A DNA stretch of 32,000 nt from NCBI GenBank assembly GCA_048938295.1, contig JBHLMI010000019.1:1-32000 (forward strand), given 5' to 3'. The notes beneath the pieces are model-generated. The model had not been told where the DNA came from, made no database searches, and worked only from the letters and a program-made list of their open reading frames with translations. Positions 3,504 through 32,000 of the stretch are shown one piece after another (position 1 is the stretch's first letter; every line of letters starts with the position of its first letter). The translations under genes and the position numbers were made by a program. The stretch comes from Promethearchaeota archaeon (GTDB lineage: Archaea; Asgardarchaeota; Hermodarchaeia; Hermodarchaeales; Hermodarchaeaceae).

Positions 3504-4223
3504 GTGAGCATGTTGTTCTTGATTCCATATGCCCTGTTCTTCTGGGTGTTTGCATTTATTTCGACCTTGATTAAAGCAGCCCGTGAAGACGAAATCAACT
3601 TCCAGAAGGAAAGTCTCACAAAACTTCCCAAAGTCCTATTTATCATCATCAAGTTACTTCCTGTACTCTTCACCGTGGTTATTGTCCTGCTCTTCCGACC
3701 CACCGCGAGCCTATTCTATCTCCTCCTAGCTGTGGCCCTGATCTTTTGCCTGTTGGGAAACATCGGCATGGAAACCAAGTTTCTTGTAGGAGTCGGACTC
3801 TTCCTGATTGCGCAAATCCTTTTCATTAGTAATTTTGTCTGGCAGAGTCTGCTTCTCGGCGTGTCTTTTCTTCCATTAGCCGCGTTCATTACTGCGTTCA
3901 TTACCTGGATTCTGGTCATAATTTTCCTAACTCATTACATTGAATCTGGAGAAGCTAGGTTAGGACAAATGAAAACCCCCCTCATCGTCTATGCACTCAC
4001 AGTATCCCTTACCTTCTGCAGTGCTTTGATGTTATGGTTGACTAGCGGAGTATTGCTTGGATTCATTCCAGTGCTAGGTGCCTTCCTCTTCGTCATCTCA
4101 GACTTTACTATTGGAATCAAGGAGTTCCATCATCACTTCAACAAAGCAGAAGTGTTCATCTTCACAACCTATTATCTAGCCATCTTCTTGCTCTCACTCA
4201 ATATGGCCGTGTACATCTTCTAA
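3504..4223 (+). CDS. YhhN/TMEM86 (lysoplasmalogenase-like) family membrane protein
   Basis: About 8 hydrophobic segments; motifs 'LIFCLLGNIG', 'GVGLFLIAQ', 'PLIVYAL', 'LGAFLFVISD' and 'TYYLAI' match the YhhN layout. Confidence 0.7.
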   Translation: MSMLFLIPYALFFWVFAFISTLIKAAREDEINFQKESLTKLPKVLFIIIKLLPVLFTVVIVLLFRPTASLFYLLLAVALIFCLLGNIGMETKFLVGVGLFLIAQILFISNFVWQSLLLGVSFLPLAAFITAFITWILVIIFLTHYIESGEARLGQMKTPLIVYALTVSLTFCSALMLWLTSGVLLGFIPVLGAFLFVISDFTIGIKEFHHHFNKAEVFIFTTYYLAIFLLSLNMAVYIF

Positions 4224-4256
4224 AAAAGAAAGAAGGAATCCTAAAAAGCGATATTT

Positions 4257-4826
4257 TTAGGATTCGGCTTTAGTACCTTTCGTCATCCACCAGGCGAGGA
4301 AAATTAGTCCACCAATGGCTAAAGGCACTAAAGCAATCAGAAATGCCACTAGCCACGTAAATACGAAATCAGCAACCAGCCAGGCATTAAGGGCAAGGCT
4401 CCAGCGTCCGGTGAACCACACAATAGCTAACCAGATTAAGGTTATGAAAAATGAGAAGCCACCACCGCCACCAGCGTCTCTACTACGTTTGCGTGGTGAT
4501 TCCATATCTTTCCGTTCTTCTTCGGGTAGTTTCCTATACCATAGAGCCCAGATTGCGATAGCAATGGGAATTACCCAACTGGCTACAGAGACCAGCTCCC
4601 AGAAAAGCGCAATGAAAAAGAAGCCCCAGAGAATCCCGACGCTCCATGAGCCAAGTGTATTAGGAATGAGCCCTAATAGAAGTGCACTCGAAACAACCCA
4701 GAGCAAAACATAAATTGCTACGATGACAGCGATGGCGATTCCAACGCCCATCATTAGTACCATTTTCCAATGACTTCGAAGAAACCGCCTCACCGTGGCT
4801 TCTTCAATTTGTTCTTCAGTTTCCAT
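4257..4826 (-). CDS. Hypothetical integral membrane protein (~189 aa)
   Basis: About 4-5 Trp-rich TM segments with a charged/Gly linker. The start was moved from 4922 to ATG 4826 (METEEQ) because AGGAG lies just upstream and the longer ORF overlaps the uvrC stop. Confidence 0.65.
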   Translation of the reverse strand: METEEQIEEATVRRFLRSHWKMVLMMGVGIAIAVIVAIYVLLWVVSSALLLGLIPNTLGSWSVGILWGFFFIALFWELVSVASWVIPIAIAIWALWYRKLPEEERKDMESPRKRSRDAGGGGGFSFFITLIWLAIVWFTGRWSLALNAWLVADFVFTWLVAFLIALVPLAIGGLIFLAWWMTKGTKAES

Positions 4827-4918
4827 GTTAGAAAACTCCTTTAATTTGAGTGGGAAGAGTTTGATGAATCGATTACTTATAGTTACGCTTTGCACAAGGA
4901 AGGTATTTCTTATAGGGA

Positions 4919-6757
4919 TCAAGAGAGATGCTCAACGATTAGTTTTGCCAATTGCTTAGTGATTCCAGGAACCGCTGCTATTTCATCAGCTGACGCTTTT
5001 GAGAGGTTCTCCCGGTTCCCAAAGTGTTGTAGGAGGAGAGTGGCACGCTTAACACCGACCCCAGGAATGTCTGTCAAAGTAAGTTTCATGCCTTTGATCT
5101 GTCGAATCTTGCGATGATAAGCAATGGCAAACCGGTGAGCTTCATCCCGGACACGTTGAACCAACCGTAGCCCCTGACTATCTCCAGGTAAATTGACCGG
5201 TGTTTTCTGATCAGGGACGTAAATAAGATCTGGATCGGGTTTTTCAGCTTTTGCGATGCCAATAACCGGAATATCGAAAATGCCGACAGATTCGAGGGCT
5301 TTGAGTGCCATACTAAGTTGTCCACGTCCCCCATCAATGACGACGAGATTAGGGAGAGGAAGTTTTTCGACCACGAGGCGGTGATAGCGACGTTGAACAA
5401 CTTCGTGTATCATCGCGAAATCATCCTGCCCTTCCACTTCGCGTATTTTAAACCGCCGATAACCCTTCTTGTAAGGTAGCCCATCTTTGAAGACCACACA
5501 AACACCAACAGATTCTGTGCCTTGGAGCGTGGAGATGTCAAACCCCTCAATATGAGCCGGCTCTTCAGTGAGATGGAGGGTTTCTATGAGATCATTGTAA
5601 GCTTGTTGTTTTCGTCCTTCATCCCGAGCCATGCGTTCAACGAGTTGGTGGAGATGGAATTGGGCATTTTCATTTGCCATTTGCGTCAGACTCAGGAGTG
5701 GCTCTTGGGTGGGGTACACAATTGTTACAGGGTGATCTTCACCTCTTCGATGAGTGAGCCATTCTTCCAGAAACTGCGTCTCAACTATGGGAACAGAGAT
5801 TATGACTTCCTCTGGGATTTCGGTAGCGCGTAGATAGTACTGTTTGAGGAAGGCTTCGATGACTGTTTCATCGGAGAGCTCGGAGGGTGCACTGAGGGGG
5901 AAGGGTTGTTGGCCGATAACACGGCCTTCACGAACCACGAGCAGTTGGACGAGGGCATCGGATCCTTGGCGAGCTAGGCCCAATACGTCACGGTGACCTG
6001 GTAGTTGGTTCCAGTAGGTGGCACGTTGTGCTTGTCTGCCACGTTGGACTGCACGAAGCCGATCCCGGTAACGGGCAGCCCTCTCAAATTCCTGGGAAGC
6101 GGAATTTTGTTTCATGAGGCGTTGGAGGTGAGCTTCAAGCTCGTCTTGTCGCCCTGTAAGCATCAGTGTGTATTCCTTGACAAATTCAGCATAATCTTCT
6201 TTACTTATCTTATTAATACAGGGGGCTGGGCAGTAGCCAATATCATATTTGAGACAGGCGCGTTTACGTTTTCCAGGGACGATAGCTGGCTTGCATGTAG
6301 CAATGGGAACAACCCGATTAATTGATTTCAGGAAACCATCCAACGCTTTGACATTGGAATAGGGACCGATGTATCGGCTGCCATCATTGACGAGGGTACG
6401 TGTTTTTTCTACCCTTGGAAAGTCTTCTTGAAGTGTAATTCGCACATAGGGGAAGCTTTTGTCGTCTTTCAAGCGGATGTTATATCGTGGCTTGTAGCGT
6501 TTGATCATGTTGTCTTCAAGGACCAACGCTTCTGATTCATTTGCTGTGACCACATATTCCAGTTCAGTTACTTCTTGTCCAATAGGTGAGAAGACGTTGC
6601 CGCTTCCGCTGCCACGGAAATGGGCAGGAACCCGTTTTTTGAGAGATTGAGCCTTCCCAACATAGATGACGGTATCATTGGCATCGTATAGAATGTAAAC
6701 ACCAGGTGCGTCGGGTAGGTCTTTGAGTTCCTCTTCAAGATTCATAATCGTATTCAC
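4919..6757 (-). CDS. uvrC: Excinuclease ABC subunit C
   Basis: GIY-YIG (PGVYIL..VIYVGKA..LKKRV), NIRLKDDKSFPY, UVR domain (FERAARYRD), RNaseH-like (IEGFDIS, IDGGRGQL, RDEAHRFAI) and C-terminal HhH (IPGVG, VPGI). Confidence 0.97.
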   Translation of the reverse strand: MNTIMNLEEELKDLPDAPGVYILYDANDTVIYVGKAQSLKKRVPAHFRGSGSGNVFSPIGQEVTELEYVVTANESEALVLEDNMIKRYKPRYNIRLKDDKSFPYVRITLQEDFPRVEKTRTLVNDGSRYIGPYSNVKALDGFLKSINRVVPIATCKPAIVPGKRKRACLKYDIGYCPAPCINKISKEDYAEFVKEYTLMLTGRQDELEAHLQRLMKQNSASQEFERAARYRDRLRAVQRGRQAQRATYWNQLPGHRDVLGLARQGSDALVQLLVVREGRVIGQQPFPLSAPSELSDETVIEAFLKQYYLRATEIPEEVIISVPIVETQFLEEWLTHRRGEDHPVTIVYPTQEPLLSLTQMANENAQFHLHQLVERMARDEGRKQQAYNDLIETLHLTEEPAHIEGFDISTLQGTESVGVCVVFKDGLPYKKGYRRFKIREVEGQDDFAMIHEVVQRRYHRLVVEKLPLPNLVVIDGGRGQLSMALKALESVGIFDIPVIGIAKAEKPDPDLIYVPDQKTPVNLPGDSQGLRLVQRVRDEAHRFAIAYHRKIRQIKGMKLTLTDIPGVGVKRATLLLQHFGNRENLSKASADEIAAVPGITKQLAKLIVEHLS

Positions 6758-6795
6758 CTACTAGAAGGCTAAACAGGTTGAAGAACCGTTCGCTC

Positions 6796-9774
6796 TTACC
6801 GGGAGAGGACTTTCACGCGGTCTGTGGAATCTTCAGAATCGCGTTCCATCTTCATTGCCAGTGCCTCGCGGAGCACCGCCCCGGTATAGGATTTTCGATT
6901 CTGTGTCACTTGTTCCGGAGTTCCCTGGGCTACAATATATCCACCTTTGTCACCGCCTTCGGGTCCCAAATCGATGATATAATCTGCCCCTTTAATCACA
7001 TCGGGTTGGTGCTCAATGACTATAACGGTGTTCCCGGCGTCGACAAGATGGTTCAGGACATCAAGGAGTTTCTGGACATCCGCAAGATGTAGACCGGTGG
7101 TCGGTTCATCGAGGATATAGAGCGTTTGTGTGGTGCTGCGTTTACCGAGTTCACGGCTGAGTTTGATACGTTGAGCTTCACCACCACTAAGTGTCGGTGA
7201 AGGTTGACCAAGTTCCATATACCCAAGACCAACCCGTTGAAGGGTTTCAAGTATACCAGCAATCTTGGGGATATTCTTGTAAAACTCTGCAGCTTCGTCC
7301 ACCGTCATTCGAAGTACTTCGTGGATTGTCTTGCCCTTGTAACGAACCTGAAGGGTTTCTTTGTTGAAGCGTTTACCATGGCACTCATCGCATTGCACAA
7401 AAACATCTGGGAGGAACTGCATTTCGATTCTTAAAACCCCTGCACCACCACAGGTTTCGCATCGACCGCCCTTTACGTTGAAGCTGAAGCGTCCGGGCTG
7501 ATATCCACGTTTTCGTGCCTCTTCGGTTTTCGAGAAGAGCTCACGGATCGGTCCAAATACCTGAGTATAGGTTGCAGGATTAGAACGTGGTGTTCGCCCG
7601 ATGGGTGACTGATCAACCAAGATAACTTTATCGATGAAGCGGACGCCCTTGAGGGCATCGAAAGGTCCAGGCTTGAGGAGCCGGCTAGCTAAAATGGCAT
7701 CGGATTGGCGTCGACGACGACTTCGAAACTGCCAGATAATACCAGGATACAAGGTATCGGTGATGAGTGTACTTTTCCCTGACCCAGATACACCAGTAAT
7801 ACAGATGAAGGTACCAAGTGGAAACGTTACATCGATGTTTTTCAGATTGCGATAGTGGGCCCGTTTGATTTGGATGCTGGCTCCGTTACCGATTCGTCGA
7901 GTAGGAGGCACGGAAATGACCTTATCCCCTCGGAGATACTGTCCAGTGATGGACTTATGATTAGCTTCAATCTCTGGGACTGTGCCTTCAGCGACCACTT
8001 GTCCTCCATGGATACCGGCACCAGGTCCAAGATCAATAATCCAGTCTGCAGCACGGATGAAACCCTCGTCATGTTCAACAACAAGTACGGTGTTACCTAG
8101 GTCGCGGAGTTGGAGAAGCATGGATAAGAGGCGTTTGTTGTCACGCATGTGAAGACCGATACTGGGTTCGTCAAGGATGTAGGTCACGCCAACTAGGCGA
8201 GACCCAATTTGCGTTGCAAGGCGGACACGTTGGGCTTCACCCCCCGCCAACGATGCTGACTGCCGATTCAGAGTTAGATAATTTAGCCCCACCGAGGAGA
8301 GAAACTCCAGTCGCTGTTTGATTTCACGAAGGGTTTGTCGAGCGATAGTAGCTTCTTTCTCTGTCAGCTCAAGCTGGTTAAAGAAAGCCAATGTTTCATC
8401 AATAGGAAGGTTCGTCACATAGTCGATGCTCTTGTCTTGGATAGTGACTGCAAGGGCTTCAGGACGTAGTCGACGACCATGACACACCGGACAAGGGAGC
8501 TGAGCCATGAACCGAGTAATTGATTCGCGAACGACCTCTGAACTCGTTTGCTTATAGCGGTGTTTGAGTCCTGGAATCACACCCATGGTGGGTTTCTCAC
8601 TGATCCATTCCCATTTTCGCCCTGACTCGGTGATACCACGATGTTCGAATCGGATTTCTTCCTCACCGGATCCATAGAGAAGTACGTTCTGAGTCTCGGG
8701 GGGAAGGTCTTTGAAAGGAGTATCAAGGCTGAATCCGTAATGCTTGGCGATGCTGGTTAGACTTCGTAATCGCCAACCATTCAATGGAGCATGGTAGGGA
8801 CCGATTGCTCCTTCCATAATAGACTTGGTCTCGTCAGGGATGACAAGATCAGGATCAACCTCCAGTGTGTATCCTAATCCCTTGCATTCAGGACATGCAC
8901 CATAGGGTGAGTTGAAGCTGAAGAGACGGGGTGCTAAATCTGGGAAACTAATTCCACACACCGGACAGCCCGCAGACTCGCTGAACAGATACTCCTGATC
9001 ACCTTTGATCTCAACAATGACTAATCCGTCTCCAAACTCTAAGGCGGTTTCCACGGACTGGTTCAGACGTTGTTCGATAGCGGGCTTGAGTACTAACCGG
9101 TCAACGATAATTGCGACATTATGAATAACATACCGGTCTAGTTCGATTTCCTCTTTATCCAATCGATAATCTTTTCCATCGACACGAACCCGGATAAACC
9201 CCTCACTCTGTAACTTCTTGAAGAGTGCTTTATACGTGCCTTTTCGACCTTTTACAACCGGGGAGAGGATCCGGACTTGAGTGCTTTCCTCGAATTCCAT
9301 GATTTGTCGTACAATCTGTTGAGCTGATTGTGGGGCAATTCTTCGTCCACACTGGTGGCAATGTGGAGTGCCAATGCGAGCCCAGAGCAATCGCATGTAA
9401 TCGTACACTTCAGTGGTAGTGCCCACAGTGGATCTGGGATTGCCTCCTGCAGATCGTTGATCGATGGAGATTGCTGGGCTTAACCCTTCAATCGAGTCGA
9501 CATCGGGTTTGTCCATGCGCCCTAAAAATTGTCGCGCATAAGCTGAGAGGGACTCAACATATCGGCGCTGTCCCTCAGCGAAGAGCGTATCGAACGCTAG
9601 TGAGGATTTGCCGGAACCGGAGAGCCCAGTGATGACTACGTATTTATCCCGGGGGATTTGTACGGTGATATCTTTTAGGTTGTGCACCCGGGCGCCTTTG
9701 ACGGTAATGTACTTGTCGTCGCTCAACCATCTGTCACCTATCTTGTCAGCGGCATCGATTACGCCAGTTGACAT
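6796..9774 (-). CDS. uvrA: Excinuclease ABC subunit A
   Basis: Two ABC ATPase domains ([20 protein letters not shown]; [16 protein letters not shown]; LDEP twice), Zn-finger CxxC pairs, [10 protein letters not shown]; 992 aa. Confidence 0.98.
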
Positions 9775-21289: not shown

Positions 21290-22504
21290 TTAGAAGTATA
21301 CGACATTATACAGGGGGAGAGGTGGGAACCACCGTTGAAGTGCATGTCTAGCCCATTCTTCTGTGATTGATAGTTCAGCTTGAAACTCTAATTCCTCTAT
21401 TGGATGTGTTCCGTAGACTAAGGCTGAGAGCGCTTGAATGGTAGCTGTTACTACAGGATGCCCTGAGCTTTTAGTTAGTCGTAGGCGTCCCTTTTCTGAT
21501 TGAAGTGAGAAGATTCCATTGTTCCAGGGACAGTTGGCATCTGTGAGTTCGATGGTGACGGTGTCATCTCCAGCACCTGGAAGGTTTTGGACTGCGTTCT
21601 TCGCGTCGATGATGCGAACCATCCAAGGAGTTCTAGCCTGATTAACTTTCAACTGTGCATCTTTGAACCAATGTTCAACCTTGGTATCGAAGGGAGCATG
21701 TATGCGGATATTTTGAATTTGGTCCTGGTGTTGTTTGAAAAAGAAAAAGAGCTTGTCACGAGCTTCTCGAGTTCGCCATAAGAGATCGAGGACATGCATA
21801 GTGGAGTGGGTTTCACCTTCGATTTGTACTCCTTTAATCCGATACCGGCTTAAAGCTTGGATTTGGCCCTTATATTTGACAAAGACAATGAGACTTTCCT
21901 TTGTAAACTGTCTCCACAGAGCATCAGGGAAGGTTTTGAAAATGAGGTAACCGTGATAGTGTGTAGGACCTATTTCGCAGACAAATTTTAGATATTCTTC
22001 TTTGGCATTTCGTGCGCGAACCCTCTCAAAGGTCCAGTCCAGATTCGGTTGTGTTGCGTCGAATATGTTAAGCTGTTTGAGCGGGGCTTGTACAATATAT
22101 GCGGTATTTGCTGCAACGTACCCGAATTGTTCATAGTAGCTTTGTTTAAAGGGATCGAGCATACTGACCGGTTGCCCCTTCTCGTGCATCATCTTGAACC
22201 CTTCCTGCATTAATTCCCGCACATATCCCTTCCGCCGCGCTTCCGGGTATGTTGCAATACCAGCTACCCCTCCACAATCCTTGAGTACACCACGGATTGA
22301 TTGTTGGAATTCGTGGACGCTTAAAGAGGAGACCAAGCGCCCTTTTTCAAACAGCCCCAGAGTTTCTTGTTCAATAATGAGATCTAGTTCTTCGCTCTTC
22401 TCATCCTGATCTGTCCATTCCGTGTATGCATATCGGTAGAGCGCCATGATGGCAGGGCGTTCATTCTTGGTAATTTTCCGAATTTCCTTCATCAGAAGAT
22501 CCAT
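21290..22504 (-). CDS. Eis-like GNAT acetyltransferase, paralog 2
   Basis: VAGIATYPEARRKGY, PFKQSYYEQFGY, WMVRIID, DANCPWNNGIF and terminal VYF; clearly homologous to 12031..13236. Confidence 0.87.
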   Translation of the reverse strand: MDLLMKEIRKITKNERPAIMALYRYAYTEWTDQDEKSEELDLIIEQETLGLFEKGRLVSSLSVHEFQQSIRGVLKDCGGVAGIATYPEARRKGYVRELMQEGFKMMHEKGQPVSMLDPFKQSYYEQFGYVAANTAYIVQAPLKQLNIFDATQPNLDWTFERVRARNAKEEYLKFVCEIGPTHYHGYLIFKTFPDALWRQFTKESLIVFVKYKGQIQALSRYRIKGVQIEGETHSTMHVLDLLWRTREARDKLFFFFKQHQDQIQNIRIHAPFDTKVEHWFKDAQLKVNQARTPWMVRIIDAKNAVQNLPGAGDDTVTIELTDANCPWNNGIFSLQSEKGRLRLTKSSGHPVVTATIQALSALVYGTHPIEELEFQAELSITEEWARHALQRWFPPLPLYNVVYF

Positions 22505-22578: not shown

Positions 22579-23559
22579 ATGAAGAAGAAACCAACACTCG
22601 TACTTTACCATCCTTTAATGGCTGTTGAGGGGTATCCGGTACTAGCTGGTCGGGTGCAACCAGCGTTTGAATATTTACGCGACACGGGAACATTGGAGTC
22701 TCCTCAGGTTATTGTAGAAGAAGCGCCTAGAGTAGGTGAGGATTTGCTCCTGCAGGTGCACACCCCTGGTCACATTCAGCATGTTAAAGGATCAGGGTAT
22801 GATTCTGCTTCGCTCGTGTCAGGTGGATCCGCGGTGAGAGCAGGTGAAGCGGTTTGGGTTGGTGAAGCAGCGAATGCGTTTGCTTTTACTGGCTGTGCTG
22901 GACACCACGCTAGTCGTGATTCATCCTGGGGTTTTTGCTATTACAACAACTCTGCCCTACTTGTCCGACATTTGCAAAAAGTACATGGAGCCAATCGATT
23001 TTTCATCGTTGATACAGACCCCCATCCAGGGGATGGAACCCGTGACATCCTCGGGAATGATGAGGAAGTATACCATTTAAACTTCGAGGCGAGTTTCCGG
23101 GAAAGCCTGGATACGGTGACGCAGCGGCATGTGGATGTCCCTTTCCCCAGTTCGAGTAGTGATGACTCCTTTGTAGAAGCTGTGCGTCTCCTAGCGCTGC
23201 CCTTGGCACGACGAATCCGTCCTGAGATTATTTTTTGGAACATGGGCCATGATGCTCATGCGCTAGACTATGGTGGGTTTAATCTCTCGTTAAGGGCATT
23301 TCCCGCTATGACCGAGATACTGCTCCAAGCTGCAGATGAAGTCTGTGAAGGTCGGTTGGTGGTGCTACTCTCAGGTGGCTCTGAGGTATCTGTGGCAAAG
23401 CATGCAATATCTGGTATTGTAAGAAAACTAGCGGGTCTACCTCAATTGCCTGAAGATGTGCAAGATGAGCCTACGACGGAGTCAGCAGCAACGAAGCGGA
23501 TGGCAGAAGAGATAATCATGAAAGTACGTTCCAAACTAGGTCTGGATGAACCCAGCTAG
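22579..23559 (+). CDS. Histone deacetylase (Zn-dependent amidohydrolase) family protein
   Basis: LLQVHTPGHI, GHHA, GFCYYNN, DTDPHPGDGT and GHDAHALD. The terminal motif is SGGS instead of EGGY. Confidence 0.88.
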   Translation: MKKKPTLVLYHPLMAVEGYPVLAGRVQPAFEYLRDTGTLESPQVIVEEAPRVGEDLLLQVHTPGHIQHVKGSGYDSASLVSGGSAVRAGEAVWVGEAANAFAFTGCAGHHASRDSSWGFCYYNNSALLVRHLQKVHGANRFFIVDTDPHPGDGTRDILGNDEEVYHLNFEASFRESLDTVTQRHVDVPFPSSSSDDSFVEAVRLLALPLARRIRPEIIFWNMGHDAHALDYGGFNLSLRAFPAMTEILLQAADEVCEGRLVVLLSGGSEVSVAKHAISGIVRKLAGLPQLPEDVQDEPTTESAATKRMAEEIIMKVRSKLGLDEPS

Positions 23560-25085: not shown

Positions 25086-25877
25086 TTATTGCCGAGGAAC
25101 CTCCTCATGGTTTTGTGCGGTAATGGCAACAGCAGCGAAGGCAGGATTCGATTTAGGCGGAGGGCCTCGAAAAATGATTGCTGTTTTTTCGAAAATTGCA
25201 GGGCAGATGTTATCACGAATCATTTGACTGAGTAGATCGAGTTCCCAATTGGTCAGGATTTCTGATAAGGCTGCATAGTTGAAACGTTTGCCCTGTAGCC
25301 GTTTTAAGATAGCCGTCCTTCTAGCGTCAAGGGCGTCAATGGAGATTTGTTCAAATGAGATACGATGTTTGCGCATAGCCTGTTTATCATCCTGGGTAGG
25401 AGCGTGGTCCAATGCGACGGGTGAATCAACAGAGGGCAATTCGAATGGTGGGATTGTCCGCTCTTGATTAATTAGAAAGAGTAAGGGAGTCGCGCGCCGT
25501 TTAATCTCATTGGCAAACTGAGAAATCCATTCTTCGGGAGCAATTTCAGGAGCAGCTAATTGAGAATCTCGGTGATGCTGCATTGAAGCGAGAGTATAGT
25601 AGAAACGTCCGTCAAGAGTTCGTTCCCAGGGCGTTTCGAGGATGCGATATGCATCAGCAACTTCTTCACGGTCAACCTCCGCTTCCTTAATCGGAAACGT
25701 GTTGTGCTGTTTTAGGGCAACCTCATACTTTTTGGTCAAGTTCCATAGTGTAATTACAATCCCTTTGGTTCCAAAGGATGTGAGGCGTGTTCGCTTGTAG
25801 TTGTATTGGAAGGTGTCGTACCAGGCTTTGCGGCGCGGAAAGGCACGGAGAAATGTAGAGGTATCATTGGTAATCAT
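25086..25877 (-). CDS. Hypothetical protein, putative kleisin-like SMC partner
   Basis: Translationally coupled to SMC (TAATG overlap) and lies between SMC and KITE. It has a helical N-part, a Pro-rich linker and a possible C-terminal WH ('ILKRLQGKRFNYAAL...LLSQMIRDNIC'). The kleisin call is mainly positional. Confidence 0.5.
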   Translation of the reverse strand: MITNDTSTFLRAFPRRKAWYDTFQYNYKRTRLTSFGTKGIVITLWNLTKKYEVALKQHNTFPIKEAEVDREEVADAYRILETPWERTLDGRFYYTLASMQHHRDSQLAAPEIAPEEWISQFANEIKRRATPLLFLINQERTIPPFELPSVDSPVALDHAPTQDDKQAMRKHRISFEQISIDALDARRTAILKRLQGKRFNYAALSEILTNWELDLLSQMIRDNICPAIFEKTAIIFRGPPPKSNPAFAAVAITAQNHEEVPRQ

Positions 25878-28771
25878 TAGGCTTTCACCTGTCCTTTGAT
25901 CAGCACTACGTGATGCATAGTTTCTGGAATTTCGAGTCCCACCGTGGAGGGGGCCATTAGAAGAAACTGAGGATGAATTAGTGAGTCTTCCTGGGTTAAA
26001 TCGAGAGCGCGTTGAACTACACTGAGAATAGCTGCTCGGCTTGCTTCATCGAGGCGTTGGGTAAATTCATCAATGACATGGAGGGGACTCTTGGCAAGAG
26101 TGTGGAGGGCTAAAATAAAAGTCTGGGTGGCTAGGACCCGTTCGCCTCCAGACATTTCTTGATAGGTCCGCCAGTCGCCTTTGCGGTTAATGGCAAGTTG
26201 AAGGTGCAGCTCCGCACGACTGGGTTCATCGGGGAATCGAATAAGCAGTTTGACTTGCTTAAGGAAGTGGCTGAGTAATTGGTTCATGCGGTGGTTGAGG
26301 GTTTCAACCGTCTCTTGAAGCTGCCGTCTCCACTCGAGTAGTCTTCGATCAACGTCTGTCATCAGATTTTCTAAGTGGAGCTGACGTTGTTTTAGGTAGT
26401 CTTGGAGTTGGGAGACGACTTTTTCCTGGTCTTCAAAGGCTTGCCGATCTTCTGCTGTGGCGGTGATAGTATCAATCATCGCTTGGAGTTGGATTTGTTC
26501 ATCACGAACGGCTGTAGGGTTTCGAACAGTCTGTGGACGTTCTCCCAGCGCAGTGGCAGCCTTGCGGAAGTCCTTAGTTTGTTTTATGAGATGCTCATAT
26601 TCATCTTCGCGTTGCTTGAGTTCTGCAACGAGGTGGTTGATTTCAACCTGACGACGGGATCGTCGGAGGTCAAGGTTTTGGAGTTGTTCGGATAACTTTT
26701 GCTGTCGCGAGTTCAGCGGTGATAAGTCTGAGCTACATTCTTGATAATCTTGGCTGAGTCTGTCGCATTCAGTTTCCAGTTCAAGAATCTGTTGTTGTAA
26801 TTCGGCTACGCGGTGTTCAGAACCAGTGACCAGGGCTGTTCTTTCCTCATCAGAAAGATGAGATGAGTGGACTTGCTGAAGGTCTTGGAGGGTTGCCCGT
26901 AATTGGCTTATTTCAGAATTGATATGCATGCGGTCTCGCATTAAGCGAGCTTCTTGTTCCCGAAGTTCACGGAGTTGGATGCGTGTGTCAGCGCCGTCCT
27001 GAGCTAGCCCCAAATCTTTGAGTGATACATTCAGACTGACCGTAACTGGTCGGGGTGGTCGTGCAAAGGCACCGATCCGGAGATAATGACTCGTTCCTTC
27101 GCTAGTGATAATGTTGCCATTGAGTTGCTGAGAGGCATCGACTAGCGTATTGGGGTCGGCTCCTTCCTCTGCGATGGCAGTGTTTACGACTCGACTTAGG
27201 AAACTAATGGCATAGATATCCCCTTCAATGAGATCAGCAGCCCACCCAATGACAGGTGAAGAGACCGTGGGGCGATCTCGAGCTATCGCGGTGGTGGGGT
27301 TTGTTCGGGCGACCACCAAATCTGGTTTTTCATTTGGCCAGAGATGATCATAGAGGTTTTTAGCCTCAACGAAGACCTCTCGGTTCAGGGCAATGAATGC
27401 ATAGGTGTAGCGGCCCAATGCCAGTTTGACTGCGGTTTCGTACTGTGCATACTCTGGTTTCATACGAATAAGCGTAAAAAGGGGCCCAATCACTGCATCA
27501 GAGAGTGCTAGTTTATCAAGTTCAGACCGGTAACGAAGACAGGCCCGAAGTATCGTCTCTTCAAAATGTGGATACCGTTGGGGTTGAGTAAAGAGGTGCT
27601 CCTCCGTTATGGCAATATCTTGTCGGACCTGAACAAGTTGATCATCGATACCATCCCGATCCTGTATAATCGTCGCTAATTCTCTCTGAATGTCGTCAAT
27701 TTTGCTTTTTGCGGGTTTCCGACGTTTGTTGTACCGTTCTGTTCGAGCTAGCATACCTTTGAGTTCGTTTTCTAGCCCTTGTCGATGACCTTGGGCTTGC
27801 ATCCTTTCATCGCGTATCGAGTCCATGGTTGTAAGGAGCTTTTCCCGTTTTGCTTCAATCGCTTCGAAGTTCTCTTTCAGGTTGGCTTTCCTTTCGTCTA
27901 ACTTAGCCATTTTCTCGTTTTGGTCGGTGAGTTGGGTTTCAAGGCTGGTAAGTTGCGATTGGAGTTGGCTAGCGAGTTCTTCACGATAAGTCACTTCAGC
28001 CCAGGCAGCTTCAACATCGAGATCCTTCTGCCTTTGTTGGAGTTGCTGTTTTTGCTGAAAAGCTTCATAAGCTGCCTTTAGAACCTGAAGGCGCTGTTCT
28101 TCGTGGCGGATTCGGTATTCGAGGGGTTTGACATTGGCTTTAGCCTGTAATACGAGGAGACGGGCTTCCTCGAGTTTTTCCATCCAGTTGCGGAGCCCAG
28201 TTTCGTTCAAGAGAGTCTCGAATTTCCGCCGTGGGGATTGGGAGGCAAAGTGGTCTAAAGTCTCAGCCTCAGTAACGGCTAGGGGAGAATCCCCAAAGAG
28301 TCCAGCCGCTTGAAAGAGTTTCCGAATGTCCTTCCGAGCAATTTGCTGGCCATTCAGTGAGCGTTTTCCATTCAACCAGTAGGATATCCGGTTCGTTTCA
28401 TCGACTCGAAGTCGAATCGATACAACATCCGTATCAAGAAGCGTAGACATGGCAGGATCTGGGCTTCTTAAGACACGTCGACCGTTGAGTTGGTAGTTGT
28501 TAAGTTCTAGAATGACTTCAGCATATTTGTTGAAGCGACCGATGAAGGCCGAATTGCGTTGGCGTTGGGCTCTTCGAGATTCAACGCCAATGGCGAGTAA
28601 CAGGGCGTCGAGAATCAGGGTTTTTCCGCTTCCGTTAGAACCTGTAATTAGTATGACAGGGGATTCATCGAGTTGGATTTTGGTGTCACGGTGAATGACA
28701 AAGTTCACTAGGCGGATGCTGCGAAACACGACTGATGAAGTTGATAGGGACATCTCGTGCCTAGTGGTCAT
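25877..28771 (-). CDS. SMC-family ATPase, SMC5/6-like
   Basis: N-terminal IRLVNF..H with Walker A GSNGSGKT (44-51) and ILDALLLAIG; coiled coils; hinge-like VIGPLFTLI...AVKLALG..YAF; signature MSGGER, FILALHTLAKSPLHVIDEF..RLD, and QFLLMAP in place of the His switch, as in SMC5/6; 964 aa. Confidence 0.88.
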   Translation of the reverse strand: MTTRHEMSLSTSSVVFRSIRLVNFVIHRDTKIQLDESPVILITGSNGSGKTLILDALLLAIGVESRRAQRQRNSAFIGRFNKYAEVILELNNYQLNGRRVLRSPDPAMSTLLDTDVVSIRLRVDETNRISYWLNGKRSLNGQQIARKDIRKLFQAAGLFGDSPLAVTEAETLDHFASQSPRRKFETLLNETGLRNWMEKLEEARLLVLQAKANVKPLEYRIRHEEQRLQVLKAAYEAFQQKQQLQQRQKDLDVEAAWAEVTYREELASQLQSQLTSLETQLTDQNEKMAKLDERKANLKENFEAIEAKREKLLTTMDSIRDERMQAQGHRQGLENELKGMLARTERYNKRRKPAKSKIDDIQRELATIIQDRDGIDDQLVQVRQDIAITEEHLFTQPQRYPHFEETILRACLRYRSELDKLALSDAVIGPLFTLIRMKPEYAQYETAVKLALGRYTYAFIALNREVFVEAKNLYDHLWPNEKPDLVVARTNPTTAIARDRPTVSSPVIGWAADLIEGDIYAISFLSRVVNTAIAEEGADPNTLVDASQQLNGNIITSEGTSHYLRIGAFARPPRPVTVSLNVSLKDLGLAQDGADTRIQLRELREQEARLMRDRMHINSEISQLRATLQDLQQVHSSHLSDEERTALVTGSEHRVAELQQQILELETECDRLSQDYQECSSDLSPLNSRQQKLSEQLQNLDLRRSRRQVEINHLVAELKQREDEYEHLIKQTKDFRKAATALGERPQTVRNPTAVRDEQIQLQAMIDTITATAEDRQAFEDQEKVVSQLQDYLKQRQLHLENLMTDVDRRLLEWRRQLQETVETLNHRMNQLLSHFLKQVKLLIRFPDEPSRAELHLQLAINRKGDWRTYQEMSGGERVLATQTFILALHTLAKSPLHVIDEFTQRLDEASRAAILSVVQRALDLTQEDSLIHPQFLLMAPSTVGLEIPETMHHVVLIKGQVKA

Positions 28772-29013
28772 TCTCTCGAGTGCACTCCCGCGGATTATCC
28801 TGAGCAGTTGGCATATTCAATATTGCCCAAGTACAGTAAGTCACAATAATTCGTCACTCTTAAACTTTCACTCCAACCAAAGACGAAGCGCCATTGCTCT
28901 GTGATTTTGAGCCGACCTATTCTCTTTCATGATTAAAGAAGGACGAGCATGCGTCTAAGATTCGAGTAAAGTTAAAGTGCGTGCTGTGACCTTCCCCTTG
29001 TAGGTGAATAGTA

Positions 29014-29334
29014 TTGAGTAAAGATGAAGGATTTTGGCGCTCAATCATCGTCGATGTTGAACCCCGTCAAAAGGAATTCCGAATCGGCATTGATGAAGAT
29101 ACCCGTGTCGATGAAGTCATCCGCACTCTTGTCACCCAGGCCCGTGATGAGGGCGTCAGTATTGACGATTGGGCTAAAGCAAAAATCGGGGACCAGCGTG
29201 CAGAATTTGTGCTCATTCGTAAAGCCCCTGAACCCACCAGGTTAAGCCCAGGTGTAACCTTCGGAGAGCTGGAACCAAAAATCACAGATGATGAGTTCTT
29301 CCTCCTCGATGTTGTCCCTGAAGTCGGACAATAG
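29014..29334 (+). CDS. Ubiquitin-like (beta-grasp) protein ending in -EVGQ
   Basis: TTG start with AGGTGA SD (29002-07). Pattern beta1 SIIVDV, beta2 EFRIGI, 'DEDTRVDEVIRTL' helix, FVLIRK, 'LSPGVTFGEL..I.DDEFFLL', then PEVGQ*. Next to an E2-like gene. Confidence 0.7.
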   Translation: MSKDEGFWRSIIVDVEPRQKEFRIGIDEDTRVDEVIRTLVTQARDEGVSIDDWAKAKIGDQRAEFVLIRKAPEPTRLSPGVTFGELEPKITDDEFFLLDVVPEVGQ

Positions 29335-29385: not shown

Positions 29386-30129
29386 ATGATCCGACCAGTA
29401 TTTTCTACCGAGCTGTTTAACGCCAGAGTGGAAACCCAGATTCAGACATTCTTTGATACCATGAACAATCTCTTTGGACGACGAGGATGGGATCCAGATC
29501 CTCCGCACCGCGAAGATACCGTCTGGAGCAATCGCGATTTCACCGTTGCTATCATCGATCGATACCGTGATGGGGCGTTTAAACGGATTCGCTTCACTAT
29601 GCGTTATCTTCCCGGGTTCGTTCGTAAACCCAGAAATCTAGAGGATACAAACGCTATACGTTATGAGCATCGGTTTGTCTTTGATTTACCCCGAGAGTAT
29701 CCTCAGAACATCGGCACTATTCGACCTATAGCCGAAACACCTCTGTATCACCCCAGACTAGCGGCTAGTGGAACTGGACATGCCTGCTACTCGGTTCGTG
29801 GGGAATTAGATCGTATCCTCGAAGATCTCCCCTTTTTTGTATTGCTAAAACCAGATCGAGTAGAACCACCATCTCAGTTTCAATCTGACCACGGTCTAAA
29901 TATGGCCGCTATGGCGTGGTATGAGCAAGATACAGATAGAATCGTTGAAACCTTAGATCAGCTCTGGGAAGCCCAGCACAAAGATGGTCCAGCTGCGCCT
30001 TCACGACAGGGACGGGTGCGTATTCTTGAAACCTCATCGACTAGCGGGCATTCAGGTCGAAGGTCACCCCGCGTTTTAGATGAACCAAGTAGACATACAT
30101 CGGTTCGGATTCTAGATGATGAGAGTTAG
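29386..30129 (+). CDS. E2/UBC-fold ubiquitin-conjugating-like protein with disordered C-terminal tail
   Basis: 'FVFDLPREYPQ...ETPLYHPR...G.GHAC' (H122-P123-R124; C134 is the only Cys) and 'GLNMAAMAWYEQD' match the UBC consensus F.I..P..YP...T..YHPN...G..C...LN..AA..Y; SD AAGGAG. Confidence 0.8.
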   Translation: MIRPVFSTELFNARVETQIQTFFDTMNNLFGRRGWDPDPPHREDTVWSNRDFTVAIIDRYRDGAFKRIRFTMRYLPGFVRKPRNLEDTNAIRYEHRFVFDLPREYPQNIGTIRPIAETPLYHPRLAASGTGHACYSVRGELDRILEDLPFFVLLKPDRVEPPSQFQSDHGLNMAAMAWYEQDTDRIVETLDQLWEAQHKDGPAAPSRQGRVRILETSSTSGHSGRRSPRVLDEPSRHTSVRILDDES

Positions 30130-30143
30130 ATGAGGTACCAACC

Positions 30144-30362
30144 ATGCCGGATTCACCTTTAAAGGAGAATGACACCCCCGACGAGCATGAGGAAGAGCTT
30201 GACAAATCATCGAAGGAACCTGAGAGGAAATCGCGGATTCAGATTCTCCGAGAGAGAGACATTCCCTTTGAAGAAGAACGTCCTCCCAACTTCTCACCCT
30301 ACTATTCCATTATAATTCATGGCAAAAAGAAACGATCTGAGCTAAAGGAGCGAGAGTCATGA
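30144..30362 (+). CDS. Small charged, probably disordered protein (72 aa)
   Basis: GAGGT SD; ATGA coupling to the next gene; contains RIQILRE and SIIIH. Confidence 0.6.
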   Translation: MPDSPLKENDTPDEHEEELDKSSKEPERKSRIQILRERDIPFEEERPPNFSPYYSIIIHGKKKRSELKERES

Positions 30363-30754
30363 GTGTGCATGGTGCATCCCAAATGCGGTGTGCGGCCTGT
30401 GCCACTCAAGTTTCACTTGAAAATGCACGGAGCCAATGGTGGATTTGCACAGTCTGTGGCAGCTATGTCTGTCCTTCGTGTCGTGCCCTCTTCTTAGAAT
30501 CAGGGCAAGACACCTGCCCCGGAGCAATTGTCCGTGGCAGTGAAGCCCACTCTCCCCACTTTACTCGGTTTTTGGGCCCTCGACTGGAATCGGAAAGTCA
30601 ACCTGCTGAGACACGAAGGCCTGTGAGAATATTAGGTGATGTCTCCAGACACTCACCTCAACCACCGGGTGGAAAAGTAGTTATTCTGTCAGATGAAGAG
30701 GGAATCGAATCCAGCTCTGAAGCCGACCAAGTAGGTCGAGATAATGACGAGTAA
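30359..30754 (+). CDS. RING-like/ZZ-like Zn-finger protein with acidic SIM-like tail
   Basis: C11-x2-C14-x15-C30-x2-C33-x4-C38-x2-C41-x11-C53P-x9-H64; paralog of 23991..24452; tail has VRILGD and VVILSDEE. Confidence 0.72.
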   Translation: MSVHGASQMRCAACATQVSLENARSQWWICTVCGSYVCPSCRALFLESGQDTCPGAIVRGSEAHSPHFTRFLGPRLESESQPAETRRPVRILGDVSRHSPQPPGGKVVILSDEEGIESSSEADQVGRDNDE

Positions 30755-32000
30755 CCTCCCCCTGTCTTTAAAAATCATCGCCCCTACGAGGCAAGATGGT
30801 GTTCCTAGAGTTAAAGCCGGTCAACGCATTTCTATTCAGTTGCAACGAAAAGGTCAAGCAAAATCGAATATTAAGGTTGACAATGGGGTCGTATACATCA
30901 ATGATCCCTTCGGGCGCATGGTGAGTAAGGTCCCTTTTCATTTTGGCAAAACTAATACAGGTGAATTTAGCGTGCCACTGACGGCAAACCTGCTGTCTGG
31001 ATTCTATACAATTCTCGTTGCTTTGCAGGAAACCCGCATCAAGCTCGCCGTCGATAAGTATCCCTATCGGGGACCTCCCAACGATCATTATGTCATGGGA
31101 TGCTTTCTCTTAGAAGGAGGACATCCACCCATTGTAGTACACAGGGTCAATTATTCGGCGACCGTGAAGAACATTACACGTGCTCGAATCAGCGATGTTC
31201 GAGTCATAATCGCTGCTCCACCCTCGCTACCTCCTCGACAAACGGTTCTAGATATTAGGTTCTCTCCGAAGGATGGACAACAACAGAATGATACCATCGG
31301 AAACCAATGGATTCGATTTCGTCAAGGAAGCCTTGCTGTGGGAGAATCCTTTACTTGTGGGTACACCGCGCTCATTCGGAATCGCGCACTCCGGTATAAT
31401 ATTCCGCCAGAAACTCACAACTCAACGTTACCAGCTAATATCGTCAAGTTCACCCAACCAGAGAATTTCATCGAATCACACCACCACCTCATCAAAGATC
31501 TTGCTCGTGATATTGCAAAAAATCATTCAACACCAATACAATTTGTACAAGCAGCGATGAGGGTAATTACAAAGAAGATGCGGTATGTTCGTCAAGAGTA
31601 TGAAAGAGGAGCAGCCTACGCTATCGAAAAAGGGGTTGGTGATTGCACTGAATATGCCGCTCTATTTGCTGCGTTGTGTCGTGCGAACAAAATCCCAGCC
31701 CGATTGGAGGCAGGCTATGCCTTTGATGGACAGTCCTGGGAACGCCATGCTTGGAGTGAAATTTGGATTCGGGGCCAATGGATCCCGGTTGATCCAACCT
31801 GGCATGGGGCTATGGGATTATTGGGAGTGACAAACCGACATATTCCTCTTATCATTGGAAACTGGATGGATACTCGCATCCGCCAAGAATTCAAAGTCAG
31901 CTGGTACTCTGATACTGTTGCTCTTGATGGAAAAAAGGGTGAGCGTTCTGAGCCCAAGATTGAGACGGGGTGGAAGGTGAAACGGGTGGTGGGTGTCCCT
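30744..32000 (+). CDS. Transglutaminase-like (Cys-His-Asp) protein, 3' truncated
   Basis: Not in the ORF track. I traced an open frame from ATG 30744 to the window end (419 codons, no stop). It contains GVGDCTEYAALFAALCRANKIPAR, RHAWSEIW and WIPVDPTW (C301, H335, D350), overlaps the previous gene by 11 nt, and has no obvious signal peptide. Confidence 0.85.
   Translation, partial: MTSNLPLSLKIIAPTRQDGVPRVKAGQRISIQLQRKGQAKSNIKVDNGVVYINDPFGRMVSKVPFHFGKTNTGEFSVPLTANLLSGFYTILVALQETRIKLAVDKYPYRGPPNDHYVMGCFLLEGGHPPIVVHRVNYSATVKNITRARISDVRVIIAAPPSLPPRQTVLDIRFSPKDGQQQNDTIGNQWIRFRQGSLAVGESFTCGYTALIRNRALRYNIPPETHNSTLPANIVKFTQPENFIESHHHLIKDLARDIAKNHSTPIQFVQAAMRVITKKMRYVRQEYERGAAYAIEKGVGDCTEYAALFAALCRANKIPARLEAGYAFDGQSWERHAWSEIWIRGQWIPVDPTWHGAMGLLGVTNRHIPLIIGNWMDTRIRQEFKVSWYSDTVALDGKKGERSEPKIETGWKVKRVVGVP

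Follow-up and report, generated by a model that had tools for sequence, protein, structure and literature searches.

Many ubiquitin-like proteins (Ubls) of eukaryotes are synthesized as precursors with short and variable tails. UFM1 ends in ...RVG-SC, SUMO in ...GG-xx and Atg8 in ...FG-x, and polyubiquitin carries an extra last residue. In each case the residues after the activating glycine are removed by a dedicated protease, and the enzymes that mature these precursors are cysteine proteases (UfSP, Ulp/SENP, Atg4 and UCH/USP). UFM1, Atg8 and Atg12 use a single glycine; UFM1 has Val-Gly at this position and uses UFC1, an E2 without the HPN motif. Pup is intrinsically disordered, has a conserved terminal Gln or Glu and is ligated by PafA after deamidation by Dop. 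Trimming has also been described experimentally for two prokaryotic operons. In Caldiarchaeum subterraneum an Rpn11-like JAMM peptidase cuts a pro-peptide of 9 aa from pro-ubiquitin, which E1 does not accept in its uncleaved form (PMC5654768). In bacterial Bub operons the peptidase is the JAB domain of BubCD, which cuts BubAB, a fusion of Ubl and E2, directly after a conserved Gly; the Bub system works with oxyester intermediates, a peptidase-E1 fusion that has no catalytic Cys, and the serine protease DUF6527 (PMC11601596).

Here, a window of 32,000 nucleotides (positions 1-32000 of contig C16) from an Asgard archaeal genome of 2.5 Mb, 91.6% complete, was analyzed. The original prediction had pointed to a reading frame in this window for a ubiquitin-like protein ending in Gly-Gln. 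The reading frame was confirmed; it encodes 106 aa, and its last codons, GTC GGA CAA TAG, specify Val104-Gly105-Gln106-stop, which gives the protein end PEVGQ. The features of the gene are as follows.

29003 to 29007, plus strand: Shine-Dalgarno-like GGTGA, 6 nt before the Ubl start codon
29014 to 29334, plus strand: gene of the Ubl precursor, a beta-grasp modifier (by its model) of 106 aa, TTG start
29323 to 29325 and 29326 to 29328, plus strand: codons of Val104 and Gly105, the invariant C-terminal dipeptide
29329 to 29331, plus strand: codon of Gln106, a one-residue tail that is not conserved; predicted pro-peptide
29332 to 29334, plus strand: stop codon TAG of the Ubl gene

A GGTGA or GGTAA motif is kept at the same spacing upstream of Ubl in 15 orthologous loci, and the TTG start occupies the position of an ATG or GTG in aligned orthologs. 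Judged by its sequence, the Ubl gene is genuine. Recoding of the TAG stop was ruled out, as the stop codon of orthologs may be TAA, TAG or TGA and its position varies. The Ubl has 21 close homologs, and a profile search among 1.8e9 representatives gave 34 matches. The family is single-copy and was present in 31 of the 400 Asgard species genomes sampled, restricted to four families, where it occurs side by side with a canonical ubiquitin system and in synteny with an SMC5/6-related operon; the homologs are labelled Hermodarchaeota, Promethearchaeota, Heimdallarchaeota and similar.

That the protein is ubiquitin-like had only been asserted by the original prediction. Sequence families did not bear this out: no model of Pfam (E<=0.1), NCBIfam or PADLOC matched the Ubl, no significant profile match to the Pfam ubiquitin family PF00240 was obtained, and an hhalign comparison of the Ubl family with the genome's own ubiquitin was insignificant (probability 8.5%). 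The best PDB sequence match was a 'ubiquitin-like protein' at E 0.014. Support for the assignment came from structure prediction. An AlphaFold2 model based on 17 homologs (pLDDT 85.6, pTM 0.78) shows strands and helices in the order beta-beta-alpha-alpha-beta...beta. Foldseek searches with this model retrieved ubiquitin, SUMO, NEDD8, FAT10, Caldiarchaeum ubiquitin and EccD Ubl domains (E 6e-5 to 1e-3), and the TM scores against ubiquitin, SUMO, NEDD8 and FAT10 were 0.7-0.78, normalised by target. An exhaustive VIA-align scan matched it to beta-grasp domains at Z 9-10.7, and 98 chains reached Z>=8; the Ubl of Bil is among the structural matches of the two programs. Language-model neighbours belong to beta-grasp families throughout, which we regard as a lead only. 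As modelled, the Ubl is a beta-grasp protein.

The C-terminal end was then compared across the family. In about 70 relatives the conserved end is Val-Gly, with Ala for Gly in one subclade. Among 29 diverse family members V104 never varies, and G105 is replaced only in the Ala subclade; both residues are present in all 26+30 genomic loci. Val-Gly (Val-Ala in the one subclade) is kept down to about 30% identity, and nothing after it is conserved. A di-glycine terminus is absent; the Val-Gly end extends across the whole Ubl family. In the Ubl model Gly105 lies 3 residues past the strand formed by residues 94-102. The members of the Val-Ala subclade (P0084, P0095-P0097, P0099, P0101 and P0102) end in ...KVA, ...VVA or ...KVAS, and some of them have C-terminal extensions of 400-500 aa with Cys-rich segments.

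Tails behind the Val-Gly are highly diverse. The 21 close homologs share a conserved ...LDVVPEVG before the tail; the tail itself is missing or reads Q, E, D, R, K, G, RK, VLP, FSS, SNP or KVEA, or comprises 13 residues. Across the family its length past Val-Gly is 0-13 residues, or an entire E2 domain is fused at this point. Nine tail states are found among the 15 species of the window's own genus (Q in four, F in three, FSS in two, and K, VLP, QKQ, L, I and no tail in one each), and the 13 residues ahead of the tail are identical in 14 of these 15 species. Tails in the sister genus are D, D and IK. A stop codon directly after Gly was observed in 10 species of the Heimdall-type family and in one species of another family, and many of the 34 proteins from the profile search end exactly at Val-Gly. 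Because Val-Gly is invariant while the tails vary, Gly105 together with Val104 is the constrained end of the protein, and Gln106 is not under selection.

DNA contigs from sediment runs containing this DNA were also compared with the window. The contigs of a co-occurring strain match it at 28996-29048 and 29221-29328, up to the last base of the Gly codon (29328), and then diverge into TTC TCG TCT TAA. Two Hermod-type populations with different Ubl tails, the second being FSS, coexist in one sample.

The original prediction had suggested comparing the terminal Gly-Gln among orthologs; in this comparison the Gly was kept and the Gln was not, with a tail that varies even within one genus. It had left two options for the Gln, removal to expose the Gly or a reactive role of the Gln itself. 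The invariant Val-Gly and the variable tail favour removal, and the lack of conservation of the Gln speaks against the reactive role; variable tails in orthologs, which the prediction itself had named as evidence against its proposal, apply to this second option. Indeed, a Gln directly after the Gly occurs in 4 of 15 congeners (a fifth has QKQ) and in none of the 11 species of the other families; the remaining tails are F, K, L, I, D, FSS or VLP, or there is none, and the alignment of the Ubl family contains no conserved Gln column at any position. It is therefore extremely improbable that Gln106 is reactive, be it by Pup-like deamidation and side-chain ligation or as a transglutaminase acyl donor independent of E1, even though the window copy ends in Gln and a co-operonic transglutaminase-fold enzyme with an intact triad has a genuine protein-glutamine gamma-glutamyltransferase (6g49, 1e-8) among its solved relatives. 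In addition, the Ubl is modelled as a folded beta-grasp protein, not disordered like Pup, no homolog of Pup ligase or Dop was found in the 91.6%-complete genome, and a full set of E1, E2 and JAB is present. The Ubl was also considered as the Gln-donor substrate of a transglutaminase and rejected, as no reactive Gln is conserved and an intact triad does not define the substrate.

The genes that follow Ubl, and two genes just past the end of the window, are listed here.

29386 to 30129, plus strand: divergent UBC-type E2-like protein, 247 aa, with PRxYP motif and HPR...Cys
29749 to 29757, plus strand: His122-Pro-Arg124 of the E2-like protein
29785 to 29787, plus strand: Cys134 of the E2-like protein
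30144 to 30362, plus strand: conserved 72-aa protein, encoded behind the E2-like gene in all Asgard loci seen
30359 to 30754, plus strand: 131-aa Zn-ribbon/RING-like protein with weak zf-UDP/RING-like Pfam matches
30744 to 32345 (window part to 32000), plus strand: transglutaminase-like (papain-fold) enzyme, 533 aa, PF01841 E 2e-24
31644 to 31646, 31746 to 31748 and 31791 to 31793, plus strand: Cys301, His335 and Asp350, the triad of the transglutaminase-like enzyme
contig 32350 to 33213, minus strand: ThiF-type E1, 287 aa, PF00899 E 6e-35
contig 33188 to 33811, minus strand: JAB/JAMM peptidase, 207 aa, Prok-JAB E 5e-9

Neither Pfam, NCBIfam nor PADLOC gave a match for the E2-like protein of the window, and its profile found spurious matches only among PDB sequences (a TPR protein and acyl carrier proteins). 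Several observations connect it with E2 enzymes. In its family His122, Arg124 and Cys134 are invariant and Pro123 is present in at least 90% of members, the HPR following the PRxYP motif. The predicted model is moderately confident (pLDDT 64) and poor around the active site; in a Foldseek search with it, all top 50 matches were E2 enzymes. Weak UQ_con matches were obtained for 6 of 12 diverse members, with a best E of 9e-4, and hhalign aligned the protein with the canonical E2 of the genome (E 1.7e-4, probability 49%), HPR with HPN and Cys with Cys.

Further support for a connection between Ubl and the E2-like protein is provided by gene fusions. In three independent relatives (P0082, P0092 and P0085) the Gly of the Ubl runs straight into the same E2-like domain. 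These fusions link the Ubl to the E2 and imply cleavage after the Gly. They have 2-3 linker residues past Val-Gly. No recognisable E1 or peptidase was found at the fusion loci L008 and L069, which are short contigs. L008 and the related cluster L034 (Ubl tail GNYVATKSL, E2-like gene and ThiF) adjoin Rep_1-like replication genes, which suggests that distant Ubl relatives ride on mobile elements.

The disordered tail of the E2-like protein (residues ~208-247) contains three R[VI]xIL[DE] motifs (GRVRILE, PRVLDE and VRILDDES). Similar motifs are present in the 72-aa protein (RIQILRE) and in the Zn-ribbon protein (VRILGD and VVILSDEE), and the C-terminal motif of the E2-like protein persists in Heimdall-type orthologs (GGIRII) and in distant relatives. 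The motif resembles a SUMO-interacting, beta-strand-addition motif. For the 72-aa protein itself, phmmer found matches in all Hermod, Heimdall and L032 loci, and Pfam, NCBIfam and PADLOC gave no match.

The E1 and JAB genes are convergent with the Ubl operon. The best solved relatives of the E1 are the active adenylation domains of UBA6/UBA1 (7e-20), and UBA5 is weaker (3e-10). Invariant features of the E1 are GxGxxG, Arg77, Asp133, a four-Cys Zn site and Cys198. The JAB motif is intact, with Glu45, His112, His114, Ser123 and Asp126 each conserved at 95% or more; the sole match of the JAB protein among PDB sequences was Rpn11 (E 0.6). A cognate E1 with adenylation domain and Cys and an E2-like protein with UBC fold and Cys are encoded beside the Ubl. 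The E1 and JAB next to the operon would offer a conventional route that has no need for the transglutaminase-like enzyme.

These enzymes also bear on the idea that the Ubl is never conjugated and acts as a non-covalent adaptor for SIM-like motifs or in MoaD/ThiS-like sulfur transfer, with a tail that is irrelevant and stays in place. The repeated R[VI]xIL[DE] motifs of the neighbours could bind a beta-grasp protein non-covalently, and ThiF-type E1s serve sulfur carriers as well. Such a role gives no reason for an invariant terminal Val-Gly or for a stop exactly after the Gly in several lineages, though, and an E2 with invariant HPR...Cys and a JAB with intact motif are foreign to sulfur-carrier systems; genes for rhodanese, MoaE or ThiG are absent from the neighbourhood. 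We consider it very improbable that the Ubl remains unconjugated.

From the comparison of sequences, Gln106 is likely to be a one-residue pro-peptide that would be removed before the E1/E2 cascade conjugates the Ubl via Gly105. For the two central steps taken by themselves, cleavage of the tail and conjugation through Gly105, we regard it as very likely that both would occur. The functional end of the Ubl would be ...Pro-Glu-Val-Gly105, with Gln106 hydrolysed off before adenylation. The ThiF-type E1 would adenylate the carboxylate of Gly105, and the activated Ubl would be passed as a thioester, probably via Cys198 of the E1, to Cys134 of the E2-like protein and from there to target lysines, a transfer in which the RING-like Zn protein may assist. 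Recognition by the E1 of a single Gly after Val would be expected by analogy with termini of the UFM1, Atg8 and Atg12 type; because these three modifiers use a single Gly, such an end does not exclude conjugation.

The enzyme most likely to trim the tail would be the JAB/JAMM peptidase of the operon, which would deconjugate too. If the tail is indeed removed and Gly105 conjugated, JAB is on balance the better candidate, by analogy with the two experimental precedents, the Rpn11-like JAMM of Caldiarchaeum and the JAB of BubCD. On the same premise the transglutaminase-like enzyme is an unlikely trimmer, and other peptidases make up the remainder. Comparative genomics does not single out the trimming enzyme, because JAB and transglutaminase-like genes accompany tailed and tail-less Ubls. 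Indeed, the presence of a tail does not track with either gene: both also occur with tail-less Ubls (L028-L032), and the tail-less L011 cluster has neither.

As stated in the original prediction, a gene for a transglutaminase-like enzyme does lie in the Ubl operon, and its triad Cys301/His335/Asp350 is intact and conserved. The enzyme might thus act as a Ubl-specific cysteine protease, comparable to Ulp/SENP or UfSP, that cuts the tail, with JAB left to deconjugate only. Its closest solved relative, 3isr (8e-18), is annotated as 'putative cysteine protease', and all Hermod-type loci, as well as L032 and L071, have the gene within the Ubl operon. To our knowledge, no transglutaminase-fold protease that processes a Ubl has been described. 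The gene also stands beside tail-less Ubls (L029, L030 and L032), is not found within 10 kb in L028 and is missing from L011. It travels with the Zn-ribbon gene, not with Ubl: the Zn-ribbon gene is always directly upstream of it, and the pair stays joined even at a distance of 6-7 kb from Ubl (L029 and L030). A predicted complex of the transglutaminase-like core (residues 125-420) with the Ubl scored 0.24 against a mark of 0.32, run without controls; this score was taken as evidence in neither direction. Processing by a JAB has precedents (PMC5654768, PMC11601596). Taken together, this division of labour between the two enzymes is improbable, and JAB remains our preferred candidate for the trimmer.

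Within one genus (loci L006, L007, L013, L018, L021, L022 and L025) the transglutaminase-like protein occurs in a long form of 533-554 aa and a short form of about 290-300 aa. The short form corresponds to residues 129-420 of the long form; the N-terminal Ig-like part (weak MG2 match) and the C-terminal ~110 residues are missing from it.

Upstream, the Ubl operon is flanked by a divergent SMC operon.

25877 to 28771, minus strand: SMC ATPase of an SMC-kleisin-KITE-RING operon, divergent from the Ubl operon

The linkage of the SMC operon and the Ubl operon was found in two Asgard families, and at least 25 loci of these two families, which differ in gene order, are syntenic. All Hermod-type loci of sufficient length show the arrangement of the window. 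In Heimdall-type loci (L028-L031) the genes for SMC, kleisin, KITE, RING, JAB, E1, Ubl, E2-like protein and 72-aa protein lie on one strand. The linkage has survived this rearrangement, which points to a functional tie of the Ubl cascade with the SMC5/6-like complex. The Ubl would plausibly be attached to components of the SMC5/6-like complex encoded head-to-head with it, or to clients of that complex. Two further genes flank the SMC operon: 21290-22504 (minus strand) encodes a GNAT-type acetyltransferase that carries an SCP2 domain, and 22579-23559 (plus strand) a protein of the histone-deacetylase family; acetyltransferase and deacetylase-family genes hold the same position in L006 and L007.

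The genome contains a canonical ubiquitin cluster as well, located on contig C53 at about 3700-7000 and comprising ubiquitin, RING, E2 and E1 genes (compare loci L035-L038). Because of this separate canonical cluster, the system of the window is a second Ubl system distinct from the canonical one. The ubiquitin encoded on C53 has 81 aa, ends in RTEGG and has no tail; it is accompanied by a small RING protein of 108 aa, an E2 that matches UQ_con and has HPN, an E1 of ThiF type and a further UQ_con protein.

A broader picture can be drawn from the genes around Ubl. The Ubl, the divergent E2 and the 72-aa protein might constitute a dedicated SUMO-like system that modifies the adjoining SMC5/6-related complex, a pre-eukaryotic counterpart of the Smc5/6-Nse1/Nse2 ligase partnership, in which the R[VI]xIL[DE] motifs would recruit the modifier and the transglutaminase-fold enzyme would be a Ulp-like protease that removes the tail. 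We consider this full scheme possible, though rather doubtful. In a recent survey of SMC evolution, the ligase functions of Smc5/6 for ubiquitin and SUMO are regarded as additions made in eukaryotes; with a conserved Ubl cascade next to SMC5/6-like genes in archaea, a eukaryotic origin of these ligase functions would become testable. In the literature searched, no description was found of the Ubl/E2 family or of its linkage to an archaeal SMC5/6-related operon.

The terminal Gln would thus bring no new chemistry and would be a throw-away tail as on many Ubl precursors. The value of the finding lies in the family, a Val-Gly beta-grasp modifier and a highly divergent UBC-type E2 that were missed by Pfam, NCBIfam and PADLOC. 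The Ubl family was previously unnamed and is so far known mainly from Asgard archaea. Its variable tail offers a simple assay, the loss of one residue, by which the maturation protease could be identified.

Compared with known systems, the Ubl belongs by sequence to none of ubiquitin, UFM1, Pup, Bub and Bil. It is like UFM1 in its Val-Gly-plus-tail end only, and kinship with UFM1 was ruled out by the missing Pfam match (PF03671), the invariant HPR of the E2-like protein and an E1 that is nearer to UBA6/UBA1 than to UBA5. The likeness to Pup is limited to the superficial Gly-Gln end of the window copy; pupylation was ruled out on the grounds of the folded beta-grasp, the Gln that is not conserved and the absence of PF03136 from the 91.6%-complete genome. 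PADLOC matched the system of the window only with generic E1 and JAB domains.

With the Bub (6E/DUF6527) and Bil operons (PMC11601596) the system would share a conserved C-terminal Gly that is exposed by a JAB peptidase, and the BubAB Ubl-E2 fusions parallel the Ubl-E2-like fusions in relatives of the window Ubl. Unlike Bub, the system of the window has the invariant Cys198 in the E1 and Cys134 in the E2, and no DUF6527 was found among the neighbours. Its context also differs from that of Bub and Bil, being chromosomal and beside an SMC operon, with no defence-type regulators nearby. The ubiquitin operon of Caldiarchaeum subterraneum (PMC5654768) likewise encodes a beta-grasp precursor with a C-terminal pro-peptide and has a ThiF-type E1, a UBC-type E2, a small Zn/RING-like protein and an opposite-strand JAMM clustered with it. 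The ubiquitin of Caldiarchaeum is recognisable as such and ends in TVGG, whereas the Ubl of the window matches no family and has a single Gly after Val. The E2 of the window is far more divergent, with HPR instead of HPN, and the system adds the transglutaminase-like enzyme, the 72-aa protein and the linkage to the SMC operon. In its layout the system is closest to the Caldiarchaeum-type archaeal operon, and in its fusions to bacterial Bub.
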